Source of the DNA: Rhodanobacteraceae bacterium
GTDB taxonomy: Bacteria > Pseudomonadota > Gammaproteobacteria > Xanthomonadales > Rhodanobacteraceae
Direction of reading: 5' to 3'
Assembly: GCA_003142815.1 (NCBI GenBank)
Contig: PLNP01000040.1
Location: 3,672 to 67,671, forward strand
DNA length: 64,000 nt
Positions 7,401 to 60,129 of this stretch are shown one piece after another (position 1 is the first letter of the stretch; each line of letters begins with the position of its first letter). A program made the position numbers and the translations under genes. The notes under the pieces were generated by a model, which made no database searches, was not told the DNA's origin, and saw nothing but the letters and a program-made list of their open reading frames with translations.

Positions 7401-7832
7401 ATGGACCACCTATACGTGCATCGTGCTCCCGTGCGTTTCACCCACACCGATCCCGCCGGCTACGTGTTCTTCCCGCGCTTTTTCGAGATGTTCCAGGCTG
7501 CGGTCGAAGACTGGTTCAGCGACTGCCTCGGACTGAACTACGCCGAGCAGATCGTGCAGCATGGCGTCGGCTTCCCGACCGCGCATACCGAATGTGATTT
7601 CGTGCGTCCCTGCCGGCTCGGCGAAACGCTGGAACTGCGGTTGGTGCTGGAAAAAGTCGGCCGCAGCTCGCTGACCCTGCGTTTCGATGGCAGCGTGCAG
7701 GGTGAGACGCGGCTGCGCGCGCGCTCGGTGCTGGTGACGATCGAGATGCAATACGGCCGCCCGCAACCGCTCGGCGCCGAGCTGCGCGAGCGCTTGCAGG
7801 CCTATCTGGCGCTCTGCCAGGCCGATGCCTGA
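7401..7832 (+). CDS. 4-hydroxybenzoyl-CoA thioesterase family (hotdog fold) acyl-CoA thioesterase
   Basis: VRFTHTDPAGYVFFPRFFE motif; AGGAGG RBS at 7391. Confidence 0.85.
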   Translation: MDHLYVHRAPVRFTHTDPAGYVFFPRFFEMFQAAVEDWFSDCLGLNYAEQIVQHGVGFPTAHTECDFVRPCRLGETLELRLVLEKVGRSSLTLRFDGSVQGETRLRARSVLVTIEMQYGRPQPLGAELRERLQAYLALCQADA

Positions 7833-8418
7833 GCTGGCCGCGCTGATCTTGGCCGCCGGTGCCGGCCGGCGCTTCGGGGCGATCAAGCAACTGGCGCCGG
7901 TACGCGGCGAACCGCTGATCCGCCATGCCATCGCCCTGGCCGAGGCGGTGGCGCCGGGCGCTGTGCAGGTGGTGCTCGGCGCCCATCGCGCGCAGATCGC
8001 CGCCCAACTGCCGCAGGGCGTGCCGGCCATTGAACACCCCGGCTGGGCCGAGGGGCTCGGCAGCAGCCTGGCGGCCGGCATGGTCGGATTGCGCGGACAG
8101 CCCGACGGCGTGCTGTTGCTGCTGGCCGACCAGATCGCCTTGCGCGCGGACGCCCTGCAGGCGCTGGCGGCACGCTGGCGCACCTTGCCCGAGACGGTGT
8201 TCTGCGCGTTTTATGGCGGCCAGCCCGGGGTGCCGGCGATCTTTCCACGCCGGCTGTTCGCCGAACTGGCCGCCTTGCGCGGCGAGCGCGGCGCCAAGCC
8301 GCTGCTGCTGCGCGAGAGCGGCCCGGCCACGCAACTGGCCATGCCCGAGGCGGCCATCGACATCGACACCGCCGAGGATCTGGCGCGCTGGCAGGCGAGC
8401 TCAGCAGCCTGGTCTTAG
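7825..8418 (+). CDS. mocA: Molybdenum cofactor cytidylyltransferase (MocA-like nucleotidyltransferase)
   Basis: LILAAGAGRRFGAIKQL, GLGSSL, LLLADQ, GVPAIFPR and DIDTAEDL. Confidence 0.85.
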   Translation: MPELAALILAAGAGRRFGAIKQLAPVRGEPLIRHAIALAEAVAPGAVQVVLGAHRAQIAAQLPQGVPAIEHPGWAEGLGSSLAAGMVGLRGQPDGVLLLLADQIALRADALQALAARWRTLPETVFCAFYGGQPGVPAIFPRRLFAELAALRGERGAKPLLLRESGPATQLAMPEAAIDIDTAEDLARWQASSAAWS

Positions 8419-8574
8419 GGGCCGTAAGCAAATAACTCGAACATCTTGCTGGTCTTTTGGCCCGCCGGCGTCGTTGCGCAAAGGGTTACATAGATTGACT
8501 ATGCGCGCCTTTGCGCGCCTCGCCGACAGACCAAAATCTTGCGCAATCTGTCCAAGTTATTTGCTTACGGCCCC
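8418..8574. mobile_element. 157-bp MITE-like element with perfect 20-bp terminal inverted repeats and TTA flanking duplication
   Basis: GGGGCCGTAAGCAAATAACT (8418-8437) and its exact reverse complement (8555-8574); TTA at 8415-8417 and 8575-8577; internal hairpin. Confidence 0.85.
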
Positions 8575-8583
8575 TTAGCGGCG

Positions 8584-10142: not shown

Positions 10143-10570
10143 CAGTGCGCCTGCATGCGTTCCAGCAACGCCTCGGCACGGTCGGCCAGGGCGCGATCGC
10201 ACATCGGATAAAGCATCTGCTCTTCCTTCATGTTGTGCTGCTGGATCAGGATGTTGAGGGTTTCACCGAAGCCGAGGAAGTCGTCCAGCTCGCCGCTTTC
10301 CAGCGCCTGCCGCATCTGCGCCATCATCGCCCGTATCTGCTCGTGTTCCATGCGCATCACCGCAGTCGGGCCGCCGGCCATGCCGCTGCGCGCCTCGAAT
10401 TCGGGAAACAGCACACTCTCCTCGATCGACAGGTGCTGCGCCATCGCCGCTTCAAACTCGGCGTAGGCCGCGCGGGCGGCATCGCGGTCGCCGTCATTGG
10501 CAGCGTTTTCGGCCTTGGCGAACAGCCCGTCGCAGACGCGATGATCGGCAGTGAGGAAGTCGGTCAGCAT
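10142..10570 (-). CDS. Hemerythrin-like domain protein
   Basis: DHRVCD, HLSIEESVLFP, MRMEHEQIR and QHNMKEEQMLYP His/Glu di-iron motifs. Confidence 0.88.
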   Translation of the reverse strand: MLTDFLTADHRVCDGLFAKAENAANDGDRDAARAAYAEFEAAMAQHLSIEESVLFPEFEARSGMAGGPTAVMRMEHEQIRAMMAQMRQALESGELDDFLGFGETLNILIQQHNMKEEQMLYPMCDRALADRAEALLERMQAH

Positions 10571-11646
10571 GGCGGGGCCTCGTGCGTTCGGATAGCACAA
10601 GACTCTGGCACACGGCCGCAGCGCTGGCCTTGCTCTGCATCAAGCCGTTGCACTTGTGTCTGCAGGCGTGCCGCCAGTGACAGCGCGATGGCGGCGGCAC
10701 CGCGGCCGCCCAAGGGCAGCCCGGCCGGCGACTCCAGCCACCCACCCAGGCGTTCGCGGACACTGCCCGGCAGCGTGGCGAACAAGTCGTCACGCCGCGA
10801 TTCCGGGCCAATCAGGCCGATATAGCCCGGCAGCTGCGGCCAGCCCGCCAGCGTCGCCAGCACCTCGCGGTCGTGGCCGAAGTGGTGGGCCATGACCAGC
10901 ACGGCGTCGTAGCGGCCGCCCTCGGTCGGAGTAACCGGCAGCAGGCGTTCGACCTGGGCCCTGCAGGCGGCCCAGTCCGAGCGCGGCTCGATCAGATCCA
11001 CCCGCCAGCCGAGCTCGTCCAGCAGCGGCAACAGGATTTCGCTTTCCGGCCCGGCACCGCAGATCAACACCCTCGGCAGCGGCGCCAACTGCAGGGCCCA
11101 GATGGCGCCATCGGTTTCCGCCGCCGCGGTCCCGACGTCCACCGGCAGGGACCATTCGGCCTGCAGGGCGCCGGTCTGCATGCACAGCCGACCCTGCGTG
11201 GCGTAACTCAGCCGCAGCGCTTTGCCATGTTCACGGTAGCTGGCCAAGATCGGGTGCAGGCCGGGCAGCGCCGCCAGCGGCAGCACCACCACCCGCTGCC
11301 GGCCACGGCATCCGGCGCCGGAGCCGGAAAACACATCGGACAGATCACGGTTGTCGAGGTCGAGCAGGCGCACCCGGCCATCGGCCTGGGCGGCATCGGC
11401 CGCCGCCAGCACATCGCCTTCGAGACAGCCCGGACTGACCCAGCCGCAGCGTCGGCCCGCGGCGCTGAAATGGACCAGGGTTCCCGCTTTGGCATAGGCA
11501 TGGCCGGCGACTTCGAGCACCAGCGCCAGCGCACCGGGTTGCGGCTGGCCGATATCCTCGAGGCAGGCGTCGAGCGCCGCCTTGCTGGGCGCACCGGGGG
11601 CGTGGCGCGCTGGCAGTACTGATTCCGGGTTCATGGGGGTGATCAC
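10564..11646 (-). CDS. xdhC: XdhC/CoxI family molybdoenzyme maturation factor
   Basis: GHAYAKAG, GWVSPGCLEGD, GAGCRG, ICGAG, YIGLIGPESR and PAGLPLGG motifs. Confidence 0.85.
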   Translation of the reverse strand: MITPMNPESVLPARHAPGAPSKAALDACLEDIGQPQPGALALVLEVAGHAYAKAGTLVHFSAAGRRCGWVSPGCLEGDVLAAADAAQADGRVRLLDLDNRDLSDVFSGSGAGCRGRQRVVVLPLAALPGLHPILASYREHGKALRLSYATQGRLCMQTGALQAEWSLPVDVGTAAAETDGAIWALQLAPLPRVLICGAGPESEILLPLLDELGWRVDLIEPRSDWAACRAQVERLLPVTPTEGGRYDAVLVMAHHFGHDREVLATLAGWPQLPGYIGLIGPESRRDDLFATLPGSVRERLGGWLESPAGLPLGGRGAAAIALSLAARLQTQVQRLDAEQGQRCGRVPESCAIRTHEAPPC

Positions 11647-11671
11647 GGCGGGTGAGGGTGGTTGCCGCGCG

Positions 11672-11970
11672 CTAACCCGCCAGCGGCTCGAAGCGTGCGA
11701 TCAAGTGCCGCAGCGCGGGCGGCTCGTCGGTGATCCGGTAGCCGCGCAGCTCGCCAACGCGGGCCGCGACCTCGGCCCAGATCTCGATGACGTAGTCGAT
11801 GTGGCTCTGGGTATAGGTACGGCGGGGAATGGCGAAGCGGACGAGGTCGAGGGCGGCGGCTGTTTCGCTGCCGTCGGGGTGGCGGCCGAACATGACGGTG
11901 CGACCTCGCAGCTGCGGACGCCGCCAGCCTCGTAGAGCGCGATGGCGAGCGCCTGACCGGGGTACTGGCG
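11672..11970 (-). pseudogene. tnaA: Tryptophanase / tyrosine phenol-lyase C-terminal fragment with a 1-bp deletion
   Basis: YPGQALAIALYEAGGVRSCEV in one frame continues as TVMFGRH...LVRFAIPRRTYTQSHIDYV in another; GTC GC ACC near 11900 where GTC GGC ACC is expected; no 5' part present. Confidence 0.75.
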
Positions 11971-12109
11971 GAACGTGGCGTAACCGGTGAATTGCACGCA
12001 TCATCTTCTGATTCTGACTCCTTTTGATCCGAACCGCCTCGCCTCGCGAGGCGCCATGTAAACAGAACACCCCGCATGGAGCAGTCAGCCCACCTATCTG
12101 GAAGGCTTG

Positions 12110-12185
12110 GCGTAAAACGCATTGCGCGCCAATCGATCGAGCTTGGCAACCACCAAGGTCGCGCCGTACTGATGACACGCATCGA
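12110..12185 (-). pseudogene. Serine recombinase (resolvase) fragment
   Basis: Minus-strand translation ACHQYGATLVVAKLDRLARNA matches the resolvase DRLAR motif; no start or rest of gene. Confidence 0.65.
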
Positions 12186-12493
12186 TGAACGTCAGCGGTA
12201 CCGCAACGCGCCGGCGCAGCGTCGCCTCGCATCTTTGGATTTCGCGACCAGTTCACCTGATCGCTCAGCACGTCACGGCGCGACCGCTTCCGGCCGAGGT
12301 TGTGTGAAAACACAAAAACTGCGTTGCGGCGATAGAAAATCGTTCTGTTGAGCACGCTGGAAGGCGGTTGAAGTGACGTACACGAGGCGCGGGTGATCGA
12401 ACCGATCGTGAGTTTTTCGGAATTTGGTTTGCCGATGTGCTCCCGCGACCGCTCGCGCAATGCGGCGGCATCCATCCATGTGGAGAGCGTTCC

Positions 12494-12932
12494 ATGAAAC
12501 TGACAATGTTGTTCGCAACGGCACTGGTATGCACAGTCAGCGCGCAGGCAATCGCAGGCGACGCGCGGTCGTACTAAGGAGGGCACGGTTGGCGAAATCA
12601 CGTTCGTCAAGACCAAGCCCGGAAAGTTCGATGCCTATGTGAAGTATCTGGACACTACCTACAAGCCGGAAATGGAGGCACTGAAGAAGGCGAAGATTAT
12701 TACCGGCTACGCGGTGTACCGGGCTCAGGCGCATAACCAGCACGATGCCGACCTGATCCTCGAAGTCACCTATACGAATATGGCCGCGCTGGATAATCTT
12801 GCCGAACGCAGTGACGCCATCAACGAAAAGCTTGAGGGCAATCTCGACAAGCAGAACCAGGGCTATGCCGACCGCGAATCGATTCGTGAAATCCTTGGGT
12901 CGGAATACGTCCGCGAGCTGATTCTCAAATAG
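12494..12932 (+). pseudogene. Conserved secreted hypothetical protein disrupted by a +1 frameshift
   Basis: RBS GGAGAG, then signal peptide MKLTMLFATALVCTVSAQAIA, TAA at 12575; the +1 frame continues KEGTVGEITFVKTKPGKFDAY...ELILK to 12932. Confidence 0.7.
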
Positions 12933-12949
12933 AACCGCGCTCTGCCCGG

Positions 12950-12995
12950 AACGACTGGCCCCCCACCGCACCCCCACTGGGCCAGTCGTTTTTTT
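12950..12995 (+). terminator. Rho-independent terminator
   Basis: 12-bp perfect stem AACGACTGGCCC/GGGCCAGTCGTT followed by a T tract. Confidence 0.75.
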
Positions 12996-13329
12996 CCCCT
13001 TCACTCCGATTGATTTCGAGATGCAGGCAGGTGGCTGTTGATGCGCCCTGCGATGTGACCAGGAAACGCATGCTCTGGTCGGTTCACGCTGACCGGAGCC
13101 GTGGACTCCAACGCCATCTGCGGGCTATGCGCTTTGCAGTTGCCCTGGCCATTTGTGAACGAGCAGCGATGGCCGGTTTATGTCAAGCAGCCAACGCTCG
13201 ATGATTTCCGAGCGGCTATAGGGTTGGCTTGCGACCTCCGACGCACGCACTCGGTCTGGTCCCCTGACGACTTCGCACCCTTGGCGCTGCGCGCTCCGCT
13301 TGCCGAGCGCTTCGGTATCCTTTGCGACA

Positions 13330-13875
13330 ATGGCCCACACCTATTTCTTCGCGCTGTTCCCCGATGCTGCCGCGCTCGACCGCGCCGAGGAAGCGGCCGA
13401 CACGCTGCAATCCGTGTGCGCGCTGCGCGGGCGCCGGATTGTTCGAGCGCGCCTTCACCTGACGTGGCACTTCATCGGCCGGTTCGCCGAACCGAATCCC
13501 GAGATGGAATCACGCGCGCTCGCGGCCGGCGATCGCCTCGCCTGCGCGCCCTTCGTCGTGTTGCTCGACCGCGCGCTGACCTTCGGACGCGAACGCGGCT
13601 CCGCGCCGTGTGTGTTCGAAACTTCGACACCGCCCGCCGCGTTGTTGTCGGCGGCGGATGAACTGCGTCGCGCGATGGGAGGCGCTGCGGCGGTACCTCA
13701 CGCCGACCATCCATTCCGTCCGCACCTCACCTGGCTTTACAGCCCTGACCGAATCGCCGAGCCCCTGGCCATCGCGCCGATTTCATGGCGAGCGGTCGAG
13801 TTCGCGCTGGTACACAGGGTGTCGGGCGAAGCGACCTACCGCATCGTCCGCCGTTGGTCGCTCAAGATCGCGTGA
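13330..13875 (+). CDS. 2H phosphoesterase (2'-5' RNA ligase / ThpR-like)
   Basis: YFFALFPD N-terminus, two HLTW (HxT) motifs and EFALVH. Confidence 0.8.
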   Translation: MAHTYFFALFPDAAALDRAEEAADTLQSVCALRGRRIVRARLHLTWHFIGRFAEPNPEMESRALAAGDRLACAPFVVLLDRALTFGRERGSAPCVFETSTPPAALLSAADELRRAMGGAAAVPHADHPFRPHLTWLYSPDRIAEPLAIAPISWRAVEFALVHRVSGEATYRIVRRWSLKIA

Positions 13876-14019
13876 GCGGTCAGAGGTCGATCTCAAACTT
13901 GTCGGACGACGGCAGGCGCCGGTCCATCTCCAGCATCATTTCGCCAAGTTGGCGGAGTTGATTGCGTTGGAGGCCGACAAACGCTTGCGCGTCGCCATAC
14001 GCCGCTGCCAAGCCCACGG

Positions 14020-14350
14020 CCATCCGTCGGCCAATCTCGTCGAGATGCTGGACGCGGCCTCGCTGCGTCGCTTCGACTTCAAGGTGAAGTTCGACTATCT
14101 GGCCCGTGACCAGCGCCGCGCGATGCTGCTCCGGATTGCCACGGACGCAACCGACGACGACCACCAGCGCGCCATCGCCCAGATCGACCGTCTCAGTTAC
14201 CTGACGCCGGGTGATTTTGCGAACGCGCTGCGACAACTGCGCGTCATCGGCGAGGCGCCGACCGCGATGCGCTTGGTGGAATTGCTAGCCAGCGAGGTGG
14301 CCATCAAGCCCGAGGCACGCCGGCGATCCATCGGGTTTGTCGCCGCATGA
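14020..14350 (+). pseudogene. AAA ATPase C-terminal fragment
   Basis: NL.EMLDAASLRRFDFKVKFDYL, LTPGDFA and terminal IGF motif; no Walker A/B upstream. Confidence 0.7.
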
Positions 14351-14462
14351 GCACGCCATTCGTAAACGACTGGCCACGCCGACTGCGAAATACACGACAG
14401 CGCAGGTGGTATTGCCATCATCCGATCTGGTCAGAGCGGTGGCCGCCTGTGCTCGCGATTAT

Positions 14463-15428
14463 TCACGAGTCTTTGACTGCGATCCGCAAACCCTGGTGCC
14501 GCCGCCGCCGCCAAGCCAGCACTCCGAGTCCAAGCAGCAATACAGTAGCCAGCAGGCCCACCATGGAACTGTCGATGGCCCACACTGCGGACACACTGCT
14601 GGTCTGGTGACTGTAGAGGTCGATCCATTCGTGCAGTGCGACGGTTAGCGCGAGGCACACCGAGATGCCGGTAATCAGCGTATTGAGGCGCAGCGTACGA
14701 TCGCGGTCTGCAATCGCCCAGTCGTATAGACGCAGCATGAGAAGGCTCTGCAAAGTATCCATCGACGCCATGCCTGCTGCGAACAGCAGCGGTAGCATCA
14801 TCACGGCCAACAACGGAATTCTGCCATCATGCGCGGCGACCACCGAGATCGCCAGCAGCGCGACTTCGCTGGCGGTATCGAAGCTTAGCCCGAACAACAT
14901 GCCGAGCGGGAACATCTTCCAGCTGTGGTCGGTGTTGCGCGCAATTCGACCTAGCCCGAAGCCGTGACGGTGCTCCTTGCCTGAATGCCGATCACGCAGC
15001 ATGGCTGCAAAGAAGCGCAGGTTGGCCAATCCGATCAGGGTCAGGAAGACGGCCGACACCAGGCTGCCGAACAGCGATCCCCAGTCCGACAACTGCGGCA
15101 GCAATACGCCAATGTGGTGAGCTGCGACGACCGCAACGGCGGTCAGCAGCAGGACGACGGTGGAATGCCCGAGTGAAAAGAACAGCCCGACGCCGGCTGG
15201 GCGTTGCCCCTCGGCACGCAGGCGGCGTGTCACATTATCAATCGCGGCGATATGGTCGGCGTCGAAAGCATGCCGCACGCCGAGCAGATAGGCGATCATC
15301 CCAACACTCAATCCGACCGCGCCGAAGCCACCGAGCCATAGGGCACCACCACCCGCCAGCAGGTTGAGCAGCAACAAGGCTGCCATGACTGTTAGCACGC
15401 GCTCGCGCAGCGATGAGTTCGCGCGCAT
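14463..15428 (-). CDS. hoxN: High-affinity nickel/cobalt permease (NiCoT, HoxN/NixA family)
   Basis: RHAFDADHIAAID, FFSLGHS and FGLSFDTASE signature motifs. Confidence 0.92.
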   Translation of the reverse strand: MRANSSLRERVLTVMAALLLLNLLAGGGALWLGGFGAVGLSVGMIAYLLGVRHAFDADHIAAIDNVTRRLRAEGQRPAGVGLFFSLGHSTVVLLLTAVAVVAAHHIGVLLPQLSDWGSLFGSLVSAVFLTLIGLANLRFFAAMLRDRHSGKEHRHGFGLGRIARNTDHSWKMFPLGMLFGLSFDTASEVALLAISVVAAHDGRIPLLAVMMLPLLFAAGMASMDTLQSLLMLRLYDWAIADRDRTLRLNTLITGISVCLALTVALHEWIDLYSHQTSSVSAVWAIDSSMVGLLATVLLLGLGVLAWRRRRHQGLRIAVKDS

Positions 15429-58269: not shown

Positions 58270-58419
58270 CTTCGGGTCGCCGAGCTTCGCGCGGTCGATC
58301 GCCTCCAGCGTGAACTAGCGCTCCAGCCAGACGCGCTCGAACTGCCGCGCCCACTCTAGGCGATACGGACGCACGTCGACCGTGGCGGCGAGCAGGCGAT
58401 CGCGCACGTTTACTGCCAT
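58270..58419 (-). pseudogene. Possible collapsed GrpB-family remnant
   Basis: VDVRPYRLEWARQFE resembles the GrpB N-terminus; in-frame stop after 34 codons. Confidence 0.3.
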
Positions 58420-59123
58420 TCGACCACCGAAAGCCGTCGCCTCAACCGCGCGGACACTGCCGCCAGCGTCGCGCGATCGGGGTTGACCAGAACCGCCGCG
58501 CGCGCCGCTGCGAGCATCGGCAGGTCGTCGAGCGAGGCGCTGTAGGCAATGTCCCAGGGCGGCCGCACCCCGCGCAAGCGCAATTGATTCGCCTTCTCGA
58601 TGCCGCGGTTGTGCAGCGCGATGCGCATGCCGAAGCGGCTTGGGGCGAGCCGCGAGCCAACCAGCTCGACCGCGTCGAGCCCGAGCTCGTCGAGGATCGC
58701 CCGCGCGAGCATTTCTTCGCACGCGGTCACGACGAGCACGCGGTCGCCGGCGTGCCGATGTGCATTCAAGGCCGCCAGCGCAGCACGCGAGAACTCGCGC
58801 GAATCGCGCGCCAGCGCCTGGCCGAAAGTTTCGGCGAGTGTGCGATAGAGCGATACGTCGACGCCGCACAACGCCCAGACGACGATGAAACGCGCCGCTG
58901 CGCGGTGCCCGCGCCGTGTCGTCGCGAGCAACGCGAGCGCCGGCAGCAACGGCAGCAGGAGCAATCCACGCCACCACGCGCGCGCATAACGGTCGCGCAG
59001 GAACAGCGTGAAAGAGTCGCCGCGGACCAGCACGCCGTCGAAATCGAACAACACGATGCGCGACGGCGTACCCGTGATGTTCGCGGATGCCCCGGTATGC
59101 GCGAAAGCGCCGATCATGGTCAT
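58410..59123 (-). CDS. HAD-superfamily hydrolase (SerB-like)
   Basis: LFDFDGVL, VVTAC and AYSASLDDLPML. Confidence 0.88.
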   Translation of the reverse strand: MTMIGAFAHTGASANITGTPSRIVLFDFDGVLVRGDSFTLFLRDRYARAWWRGLLLLPLLPALALLATTRRGHRAAARFIVVWALCGVDVSLYRTLAETFGQALARDSREFSRAALAALNAHRHAGDRVLVVTACEEMLARAILDELGLDAVELVGSRLAPSRFGMRIALHNRGIEKANQLRLRGVRPPWDIAYSASLDDLPMLAAARAAVLVNPDRATLAAVSARLRRRLSVVEWQ

Positions 59124-59154: not shown

Positions 59155-60129
59155 CTAGCCCGACGCCGGCTCGTGCACGGTGCCGAACAGCCGGGCGAGT
59201 TCCGCGCCGGGATCCGACGCGCGCATGAACGCCTCGCCGACCAGGAACGCGTTGACGCCGGCCGCGCGCATGCGCGTGACGTCGTCCGGCGTGTGGATGC
59301 CGCTTTCGGTGACCAGCAGACGATCGTCGCCCACGCGTTCGCGCAGGCGCAATGTCGTATCGAGCGAAGTTTCGAACGTGCGCAGGTTGCGGTTGTTGAC
59401 GCCAATCAAGAGTCGACCAGCCCTTGGATAAGCTGGCTGCAAAGCCGACTGGGCGGTCCATACCCCACCGCTTGTTTGGCCCATAGAACCACTATGGGCC
59501 GGCACACGCAGCGGAATCTGTCCTCGCTCATCCGACTTTTCGTTTCGACTCCCCAAGGCCCGATCGACTCTTGGTGCGGGAATGTCCAGCGCGCGTTCGA
59601 GCTCCGCTTCGTCGTGCACCTCGACCAGCACGTCGAGATCGAGCTCGGTCGCGAGCAGCGCGAGTTCGAGCAGGGCCGCATCGCCGAGCGCGGCGACGAT
59701 CAGCAGGATGCAGTCCGCACCGATCGCACGCGCCTCGTAGACCTGATATGCATCCATCGTGAAATCCTTGCGCAGCACCGGCAGATCACAGGCCGCGCGT
59801 GCTTCGACGAGATACGTCTCGCTGCCCTGGAAAAAATCTGCGTCGGTCAGCACTGACAAACAAGCCGCGCCTGCGGCGGCGTAGCTGCGCGCGATCGCGG
59901 CCGGATCGAAGTCGGCGCGGATCACGCCTTTGGACGGGCTGGCCTTCTTGACCTCGGCGATCACCGCCGGCTCGCCTGCCGCGATCTTCGCCTCGAGTGC
60001 TGCGGCGAAACCACGTGTCGGCGGAAGATCGGTGACTCTCGCCGAGAGTTCGGCGAGCGAGACGCGCGCGCTGCGTTCGGCAATTTCCTCAACTTTGCGT
60101 GCGAGGATGCGTTTGAGGATGTCGTTCAT
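59155..60129 (-). CDS. trpC: Indole-3-glycerol-phosphate synthase with a 54-aa in-frame insertion
   Basis: [38 protein letters not shown] and LVGE; extra 54 aa between IPAP and LIGVNN. Confidence 0.95.
59410..59571. mobile_element. 162-bp MITE-like element inserted in frame within trpC
   Basis: Ends form an 18/21 inverted repeat (CAAGAGTCGACCAGCCCTTGG versus revcomp CAAGAGTCGATCGGGCCTTGG); central 9-bp hairpin GGCCCATAG-aacca-CTATGGGCC. Confidence 0.85.

Follow-up and report, generated by a model that had tools for sequence, protein, structure and literature searches.

Short palindromic repeats that enter protein-coding genes in frame are known from several bacteria, among them the Rickettsia palindromic elements, intragenic copies of ERIC, QMITE1 of Coxiella and the transposable elements of the miniature inverted-repeat type (MITEs) of Anabaena (PMC10969869). 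In-frame insertion of MITEs is thus known beyond Rickettsia, and the kind of event described here is not new. We are concerned with 162 nt of extra DNA inside trpC, the gene for indole-3-glycerol-phosphate synthase (IGPS), in a stretch of 64,000 nt from Rhodanobacteraceae bacterium (GCA_003142815.1, contig PLNP01000040.1, positions 3,672-67,671 of the forward strand), hereafter called the window. This insert is very probably what is left of an IS630-type MITE, now fixed, immobile and subject to neutral drift, and read as a disordered loop between helix alpha5 and strand beta6 of TrpC, and the repeat family to which it belongs appears to be undescribed in Rfam and in the literature searched. 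Four things give the finding its worth: how old and how isolated the trpC copy is, the contrast in selection between the insert and its host gene, the undescribed and widespread family itself, and a second genic case in tamB.

An earlier reading of the window, made from its sequence only, had offered the Rickettsia palindromic elements (Ogata et al. 2000, as summarised in PMC10969869) as the precedent. The behaviour is indeed alike, in TrpC as in TamB, but such entry into genes is not confined to Rickettsia. As far as that summary goes, both are palindromes of about 150 bp with a stop-free frame, which enter unrelated housekeeping genes in frame and leave an extra peptide compatible with the fold. 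The hosts, in the same account, are obligate intracellular Alphaproteobacteria, whereas those of the present family are free-living soil Gamma- and Betaproteobacteria. Unlike the Rickettsia elements, the present family is mostly intergenic-looking and has clear TA duplications, and the likeness is one of behaviour only. In its length (100-170 bp), terminal inverted repeats and whole-length hairpin it resembles MITEs of the IS630/Tc1-mariner type such as Correia/NEMIS of Neisseria. The ends of Correia are not known to resemble those of the present family (GGAGCCTGTCGGACTT). ERIC of enterobacteria and QMITE1 of Coxiella burnetii are small gammaproteobacterial palindromes with open reading frames (ORFs) that sometimes give in-frame fusions (PMC10969869; PMC5896051). 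They are different sequence families, however, and the published examples are mostly recent, strain-level insertions, whereas the trpC copy has reached fixation in a clade and is the last one surviving in its genome. The betaproteobacterial repeat element BRE of Bordetella (PMC3110155) shares with the present family its occurrence in Comamonadaceae, Rhodocyclaceae and other Betaproteobacteria and its occasional position inside coding sequences, but it is about 90 bp long, forms tandem arrays and has the consensus TTTTTGGCCGCGGGCCGCCCAAGGCAAAAAAGCC...; with the sequences in the supplement unrelated to ours, we rejected it as a member of the same family.

The trpC insert and its place in the enzyme

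The trpC gene (59155-60129, minus strand) lies in an intact trpG-trpD-trpC arrangement and encodes 324 residues, the insert included. Its product matches the Pfam IGPS profile (PF00218, E=1e-92) in two separate stretches, and it aligns with the P. aeruginosa enzyme (PDB 6y88, E=9e-88) over residues 4-182 and 241-315, the residues between being skipped. Compared with the empty sites of three insert-free loci (L013, L014 and L015), the extra DNA covers 59410-59571, that is 162 nt or residues 187-240 (54 amino acids), and reads open in frame with neither a stop nor a frameshift. When 101 close homologues are aligned, residues occupy the 54 columns that separate DIPAP from L[IV]G[VI]NNRNL in no protein other than that of the window and P0001-P0003, which leaves about 97 close relatives without the insert. 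It is therefore not a conserved protein segment of the TrpC family; had it been one, with no other DNA copies, the proposal of the sequence-only reading would have been refuted on its own terms. The closest named relatives of the window protein are TrpC of Dokdonella and other Rhodanobacteraceae, and the public runs that contain the locus are peat and soil metagenomes. The insert is no artefact: it occurs in at least 20 public runs and four assemblies (L001, L002, L003 and L011), all of them independent.

The element proper, which corresponds to the GGAGCC...GGCTCC of the family copies described below, occupies 59409-59571 on the minus strand (163 nt). In trpC orientation its 5' terminal inverted repeat is CAAGAGTCGATCGGGCCTTGG (59553-59573, minus strand) and its 3' terminal inverted repeat is CCAAGGGCTGGTCGACTCTTG (59407-59427, minus strand), the two being complementary at 18/21 positions; the first two bases of the former (CA) and the last two of the latter (TG) stand where the family has its duplicated TA. 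At the centre lies an apical hairpin, GGCCCATAG-N5-CTATGGGCC (59478-59500), whose arms at 59478-59486 and 59492-59500 are paired at all nine positions. The entire 167 nt fold into one long imperfect hairpin, with a coding-strand RNA energy of -93.6 kcal/mol against -59.0 +/- 4.3 for shuffled sequences (z = -8.1); for the template strand z is -4.9, and with DNA parameters it is -2.8. The hairpin structure of the insert is thus far beyond chance. At 163 nt the element falls within the size of MITEs, about 50-500 bp, carries no transposase gene and has no ORF other than the read-through trpC frame, and the covariance models of Rfam 15 gave no relevant match for the window copy or for three canonical family copies. 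These measurements bear out the sequence-only reading in its description of exactly 162 extra bp with 18/21 terminal repeats, a 9-bp central hairpin and an uninterrupted frame, as well as in its remark that no target duplication is clear at this site.

The catalytic residues of IGPS are all kept in the window protein (E59, K61, K121, E170, N245, R247, E275 and S276), as the sequence-only reading had also noted, and they are invariant in the family alignment with the exception of K121, which is kept in at least 90% of the sequences. We take E51/K53/K110/E159/N180/E210/S211 to be the counterparts in the S. solfataricus enzyme, with N245 and R247 presumably equivalent to its N180 and R182 on strand beta6. 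An AlphaFold2 model built on the same 101 sequences has an intact barrel, with a mean predicted local distance difference test (pLDDT) score of 81 and most barrel residues above 90, whereas residues 188-236 of the insert score below 50 and have no secondary structure. In the model the insert stands between helix 174-181 (alpha5) and strand 241-245 (beta6, with N245), and this places it in the alpha5-beta6 loop rather than the alpha6-beta7 loop proposed earlier; the accompanying proposal, that it lies on the barrel face opposite the active site, agrees with the model, in which the insert is on the N-terminal face. The insert is therefore predicted to be a disordered surface loop. By its profile match, its modelled (beta/alpha)8 barrel and its catalytic residues, the insert-bearing TrpC is an IGPS, and it is probably functional.

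A dispersed family of hairpin repeats

No second copy of the element was found in the window by BLASTN or by nhmmer with the family profile, which scores the trpC copy itself at E=1e-42. For the rest of the host genome, we matched the element interior at 80% or greater likeness to the contigs of eight public metagenome assemblies in which the organism has a depth of 4-24x. No contig was recruited beyond the organism's own trpC locus, which came as one spanning contig in seven runs and as two abutting fragments in the eighth. The conserved trpC segments that flank the insert recruited many foreign contigs in the four runs in which they were used, and so the method is able to detect short diverged matches. 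The element is a single copy in its host genome, and the label "selfish" given to it by the sequence-only reading does not hold for this host today: with no other copy left, it is a relic. In PLSDB plasmids, BLASTN and TBLASTN matched neither the window copy nor the consensus peptide of the family nor two of its canonical copies. An exact scan for the ends of the window copy (CAAGAGTCGAYCNGNCCTTGG, which are not the canonical family ends) gave five chance matches in the GTDB species genomes, the window's own genome not being among them, and none with a second arm; in JGI metagenome contigs it gave three chance matches as well as L011, which is the same trpC locus. When the concatenated six-frame translation of the element was used as a protein query, a search too insensitive for the purpose, only P0001 was recovered. 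The 16-mer AAGTCCGACAGGCTCC had 11 matches in viral contigs, none of them confirmed by nhmmer, a literature search for the terminal-repeat strings returned only unrelated primers, and the trpC locus was not found in public RNA runs. The BLASTN search for other copies that the sequence-only reading had suggested was thus empty for the window and for plasmids, but profile searches showed a family elsewhere. No search by exact pattern or within the same genome revealed the mobile origin of the insert; it took profiles run against other taxa to do so.

A profile of the four insert peptides, searched against 1.84 billion cluster representatives (E <=1e-3), matched 82 short ORFs, nearly all of 50-190 residues and most spanning nearly all of the 54 residues. 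A broader profile against a 5.8-billion-protein set found at least 669 clusters of short ORFs without domains, there being no Pfam domain in any of the best 120 of the 669. Among the matches listed, the named sources are mostly Betaproteobacteria in which the ORFs are annotated as hypothetical proteins: Extensimonas (several per genome), Aromatoleum petrolei, Telluria, Acidovorax, Polaromonas, Thiomonas, Nitrosospira, Sulfuricella and Hydrogenophilales. Gene callers, when run over the copies of a DNA repeat, give just such a pattern. The hypothetical-protein clusters of 50-100 residues with motifs such as LGACRTWGIESEK...ERGQI...SPAHSGTMGQESGEIWTA...LQPI.PKSDRLLG, at least 669 in number, are themselves apparently artefacts of gene calling on this repeat.

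At the DNA level we examined six copies, which come from five other genomes: L016, L017, L021 (Extensimonas sp. H3M7-6), two in L033 (E. perlucida) and L034 (Aromatoleum petrolei); L018-L020 are the L017 locus in other samples. The ten contigs of P0189 were dropped as evidence for multiple copies because they are one and the same locus in different samples. An nhmmer profile made exclusively from trpC copies matched the copies of other genomes at E = 1e-15 to 1e-25, and the window element, which is 74% identical to L016 over 127 nt, aligns to all six over its full length without gaps. The six are 162-163 nt long with ends GGAGCCTGTCGGACTT / AAGTCCGACAGGCTCC that form nearly perfect inverted repeats, beginning GGAG[C/T]CTGTCGGAC[T/C]T and finishing AAGTCCGACAGGCTCC, and all fold as hairpins of 62-67 bp with z of -7 to -14. 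RNAalifold on an alignment of nine sequences gave 53 pairs, 20 of them with compensatory double changes, and these cover the apical hairpin (GGTCAATAG/CTATTGACC in L017 and L034, GCCCCATAG/CTATGGGGC in L021 and L033) as well as the terminal-repeat positions at which the trpC copy departs from the canonical ends. The comparison points to a likely constraint on the folded form of one strand of the repeat. In the family alignment A6, whose consensus has 166 nt, the covarying columns are 74-96 for the apical hairpin and 7-11 with 157-161 for the terminal repeats, internal loop and bulge positions are kept, and nhmmer scores are about 150 bits forward and about 35 in reverse. The copies are dispersed, two full ones and a truncated one lying within 18 kb of E. 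perlucida, their context differs at every locus, and most appear to be intergenic. Being homologous to this dispersed family, the window insert is to be regarded as a palindromic mobile element, a MITE, rather than a loop particular to one lineage of TrpC; the family, its terminal repeats and the 2-bp duplications of other copies all speak for the MITE-like element inserted in frame that had been proposed from the window sequence.

The flanks of the family copies suggest how the element moved. They read C-TA[...]TA-G in 5/6 copies and C-TT[...]TT-G in the remaining one, and as TT/TT is a direct repeat, a true 2-bp duplication is indicated. The same target can be read from the family ORFs, in which the residue after ...DRL-L is one encoded exclusively by G-initial codons (G/D/A/E/V) in 136/164 and a leucine (CTA) precedes GACR in 50/59; together these imply CTAG at both ends. 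Elements of the IS630 family duplicate TA and occasionally AA/TT, and IS630 itself prefers CTAG (PMC2170065). The TA (occasionally TT) duplication and the CTAG-like targets of the present family agree with this ISY100/IS630 mechanism and are the signature of IS630/Tc1-mariner, so that the element was probably mobilised by a transposase of this type.

The trpC gene is not the only conserved gene to have received the element in frame. In E. perlucida (L033; GCA_007655255.1, VMYE01000006.1) positions 13675-13915 hold a full copy directly followed by a 73-nt internally deleted copy, and the pair lies in frame within a tamB ORF of 1604 residues (10514-15328, minus strand). This ORF continues for about 1000 residues past the elements into the TamB domain (Pfam PF04357, E=4e-63; NCBIfam TamB), and it adjoins a TamA-like Omp85 gene. 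The frame used in TamB is the frame used in TrpC (...LGACRTLGVDSEN...KSDRLLG...), and thus the family has entered at least two conserved proteins in one and the same frame.

Age, selection and the proposed course of the insertion

Two further loci, the ENA contigs L001 and L002 (proteins P0002 and P0003), carry the insert at the identical trpC site, with 77% nucleotide identity to that of the window; L002 has a 3-nt deletion, by which exactly one codon is lost. Outside the insert the synonymous divergence (dS) of trpC between the window and these two is 0.54-0.65. In a tree of trpC (insert removed), crp and speD concatenated, neighbour-joining with all codon positions separates the window, L001 and L002 from the insert-free L013, L014 and L015 with 100% bootstrap support, whereas first and second codon positions alone leave this split unresolved. 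The simplest reading of these sequences is that one ancient insertion took place in the common ancestor of both lineages. Precise excision in L013, which had been considered on account of a shared loss of HAD/GNAT genes, is not needed, for the concatenated tree separates insert-bearing from insert-free loci. A HAD-family hydrolase gene lies between trpC and crp in the window (58410-59123, minus strand); in this interval L014 and L015 have a HAD gene and a MarR/GNAT gene, and L001, L002 and L013 have neither. The gene content of the interval does not track the presence or absence of the insert.

The insert and the rest of the gene have fared differently since then. Outside the insert, comparison of the window with L001/L002 gives a ratio of nonsynonymous to synonymous divergence (dN/dS) of 0.11-0.15, no different from that for insert-free relatives; as the whole of this divergence postdates the insertion, purifying selection has continued to act on TrpC as normal. 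Diverged pairs give a dN/dS of 0.66-1.40 for the insert, and its GC contents at the three codon positions are 0.67/0.61/0.52 as against 0.72/0.46/0.79 in the rest of trpC. The long hairpin, in addition, is largely lost in the sister lineage (z of -1.9 in L001 and -0.6 in L002, against -8.1 in the window); arm-specific changes number 7 in the window lineage and 13 in the sister lineage, a difference that is not significant. A dN/dS near 1, a disordered model and the decay of the hairpin in the sister lineage together suggest that the insert is tolerated and not domesticated. The sequence-only reading had left both possibilities standing, and it is the first of them that the dN/dS and the pLDDT values favour. 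An excess of G-U pairs had also been considered as a sign of strand-specific RNA structure, but with 10 versus 6 wobble positions it was not significant and was dropped.

From these comparisons the course of events may be proposed. In the ancestor of a small Dokdonella-like clade of Rhodanobacteraceae, a transposase of the IS630/Tc1-mariner type acting in trans would have inserted one copy into trpC, at the Leu-Val/Ile codons immediately before strand beta6. Insert-free relatives read GCG CCA|CTG ATC GGC at this site; an ancestral ...CCA CTA GTC... would contain CTAG and, after insertion, would give the 3' junction CTC CTA GTC, for which L001 has CTC CTG GTC. The outer C...G of CTAG is also present around the element in L001 and L002. 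The element with its TA duplication would have amounted to 165 nt (55 codons), stop-free in the orientation and phase of insertion, and TrpC would thus have stayed in frame; the loop being away from the active site, the enzyme would have kept working and the allele could become fixed. The 5' junction is one codon shorter than the TA-duplication model predicts, so that one codon was probably lost there early, before the lineages of the window and of L001/L002 split, so that 162 nt remain as the net gain. From that time on the 54 codons may have drifted almost neutrally, with the frame and the absence of stops as their sole constraint, while the host genome has come to hold neither partner copies nor a transposase signal, which would make the element immobile.

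Several observations weigh against this reading. Where the trpC copy would have its duplication it has CA on one side and TG on the other, and it adds 162 nt net instead of 165; with no recognisable duplication an extra deletion must be assumed, although the flanks and the length fit a decayed duplication with the probable loss of one codon. The ends of the trpC copy (variant GAGTCGAYCGGGCCTT) differ from the canonical ends at several positions, and neither GTDB species genomes nor JGI metagenomes gave a further copy whose ends are exactly these. As the ends have changed on both arms together, the copy presumably derives from a subfamily with ends of its own. No transposase gene was present in the flanks fetched for the family copies, and no autonomous element or transposase with matching ends was identified, no search of the same genomes having been aimed at one. 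It is solely the conservation of the frame that suggests translation of the insert. Finally, taken as a whole the insert diverges by about 0.27 per site, less than the dS of the gene (about 0.6), which could reflect some residual constraint or simply different mutation rates at GC3 sites.

This slower divergence is one of the points that would be expected had the 54-residue loop, or the stable hairpin of its mRNA or DNA (-94 kcal/mol), acquired a function, for example in contact with another Trp enzyme or in the control of trp translation or mRNA stability. The retention of the frame across a dS of about 0.6, with a single indel of exactly 3 nt, and the strength of the hairpin in the window lineage with its fewer arm changes would suit such a role too. 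We nevertheless consider domestication unlikely, given that the insert has a dN/dS near 1, lacks a coding-type GC pattern and is predicted to be disordered, that the hairpin is essentially gone from L001 and L002, that neither the count of arm changes, which does not differ significantly, nor the slower divergence is strong enough to support a claim, and that frame retention needs no function of the insert where a frameshift or stop would destroy a strongly selected enzyme. Nor is it at all likely that the insert is tolerated because trpC is decaying or redundant, in a tryptophan auxotroph or beside another IGPS. A second trpC is possible insofar as the view is limited to 64 kb of the genome, but the rest of the gene has kept the dN/dS of insert-free relatives since the insertion, and its catalytic residues, gene arrangement and modelled barrel are intact; the inactive TrpC of an auxotroph, which the sequence-only reading had set against its own proposal, is at odds with purifying selection of this strength.

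Still less probable, in our judgement, is removal of the 162 nt after transcription or translation, in the manner of a small intron or an intein, which would leave a mature TrpC without the insert. The element is highly structured as RNA, as this would lead one to expect, yet neither the window copy nor the canonical copies match Rfam, self-splicing introns are much larger than 162 nt, and intein-type residues are missing from the junctions of the 54-residue stretch. Moreover, the target duplications around related copies are of the sort typically left by DNA transposition, and there would be no need to keep an open frame, as three diverged lineages do, in a segment that is spliced out. That the insert is a non-mobile expansion of the loop in one lineage, palindromic by chance or through local template switching in replication, seems scarcely credible to us. 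Its single copy in the host and the missing target duplication would agree with such an origin, but it has full-length, gap-free homology to a repeat in unrelated contexts of other bacterial classes, and it has no similarity to the adjoining trpC sequence.

A second MITE-like element, unrelated in sequence to that of trpC, lies elsewhere in the window at 8414-8578 (165 bp). It has terminal inverted repeats of 36 nt (GGGGCCGTAAGCAAATAACTCGAAC..., 31/36) and is flanked on both sides by TTAG, which may represent a 4-bp duplication of the kind made by the IS5 family. The ORFs on either side of it converge, the TAG stop of one of them (7825-8418) falling inside its left end; the element is a single copy in four assemblies and was not found in plasmids.

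Significance of the probable relic and its family

How a TIM-barrel enzyme can take up 54 random-like residues in one of its bottom loops, while purifying selection on it continues as normal, may be studied in the trpC copy as a dated natural experiment. The copy also shows that a mobile insertion can be recognised after every sister copy has vanished from the genome, provided that profile searches extend across taxa. The family to which it belongs is a widespread hairpin repeat with an IS630-like insertion signature, and it yields hundreds of spurious "hypothetical proteins".

It is conceivable, though we regard it as rather doubtful, that this family is an undescribed free-living counterpart of the Rickettsia palindromic elements: a 55-codon unit together with its TA, with a stop-free frame, pre-adapted to survive insertion into genes and thereby a recurrent source of loops. 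If this is true, recurrent disordered loops would be expected in the housekeeping proteins of Beta- and Gammaproteobacteria, TrpC and TamB would be the initial pair of examples, and from TrpC it would be seen that a loop of this sort can long outlast the extinction of the family in a genome. Should there be further genic copies, the phenomenon of "selfish DNA in proteins" known from Rickettsia would be extended to free-living Proteobacteria.

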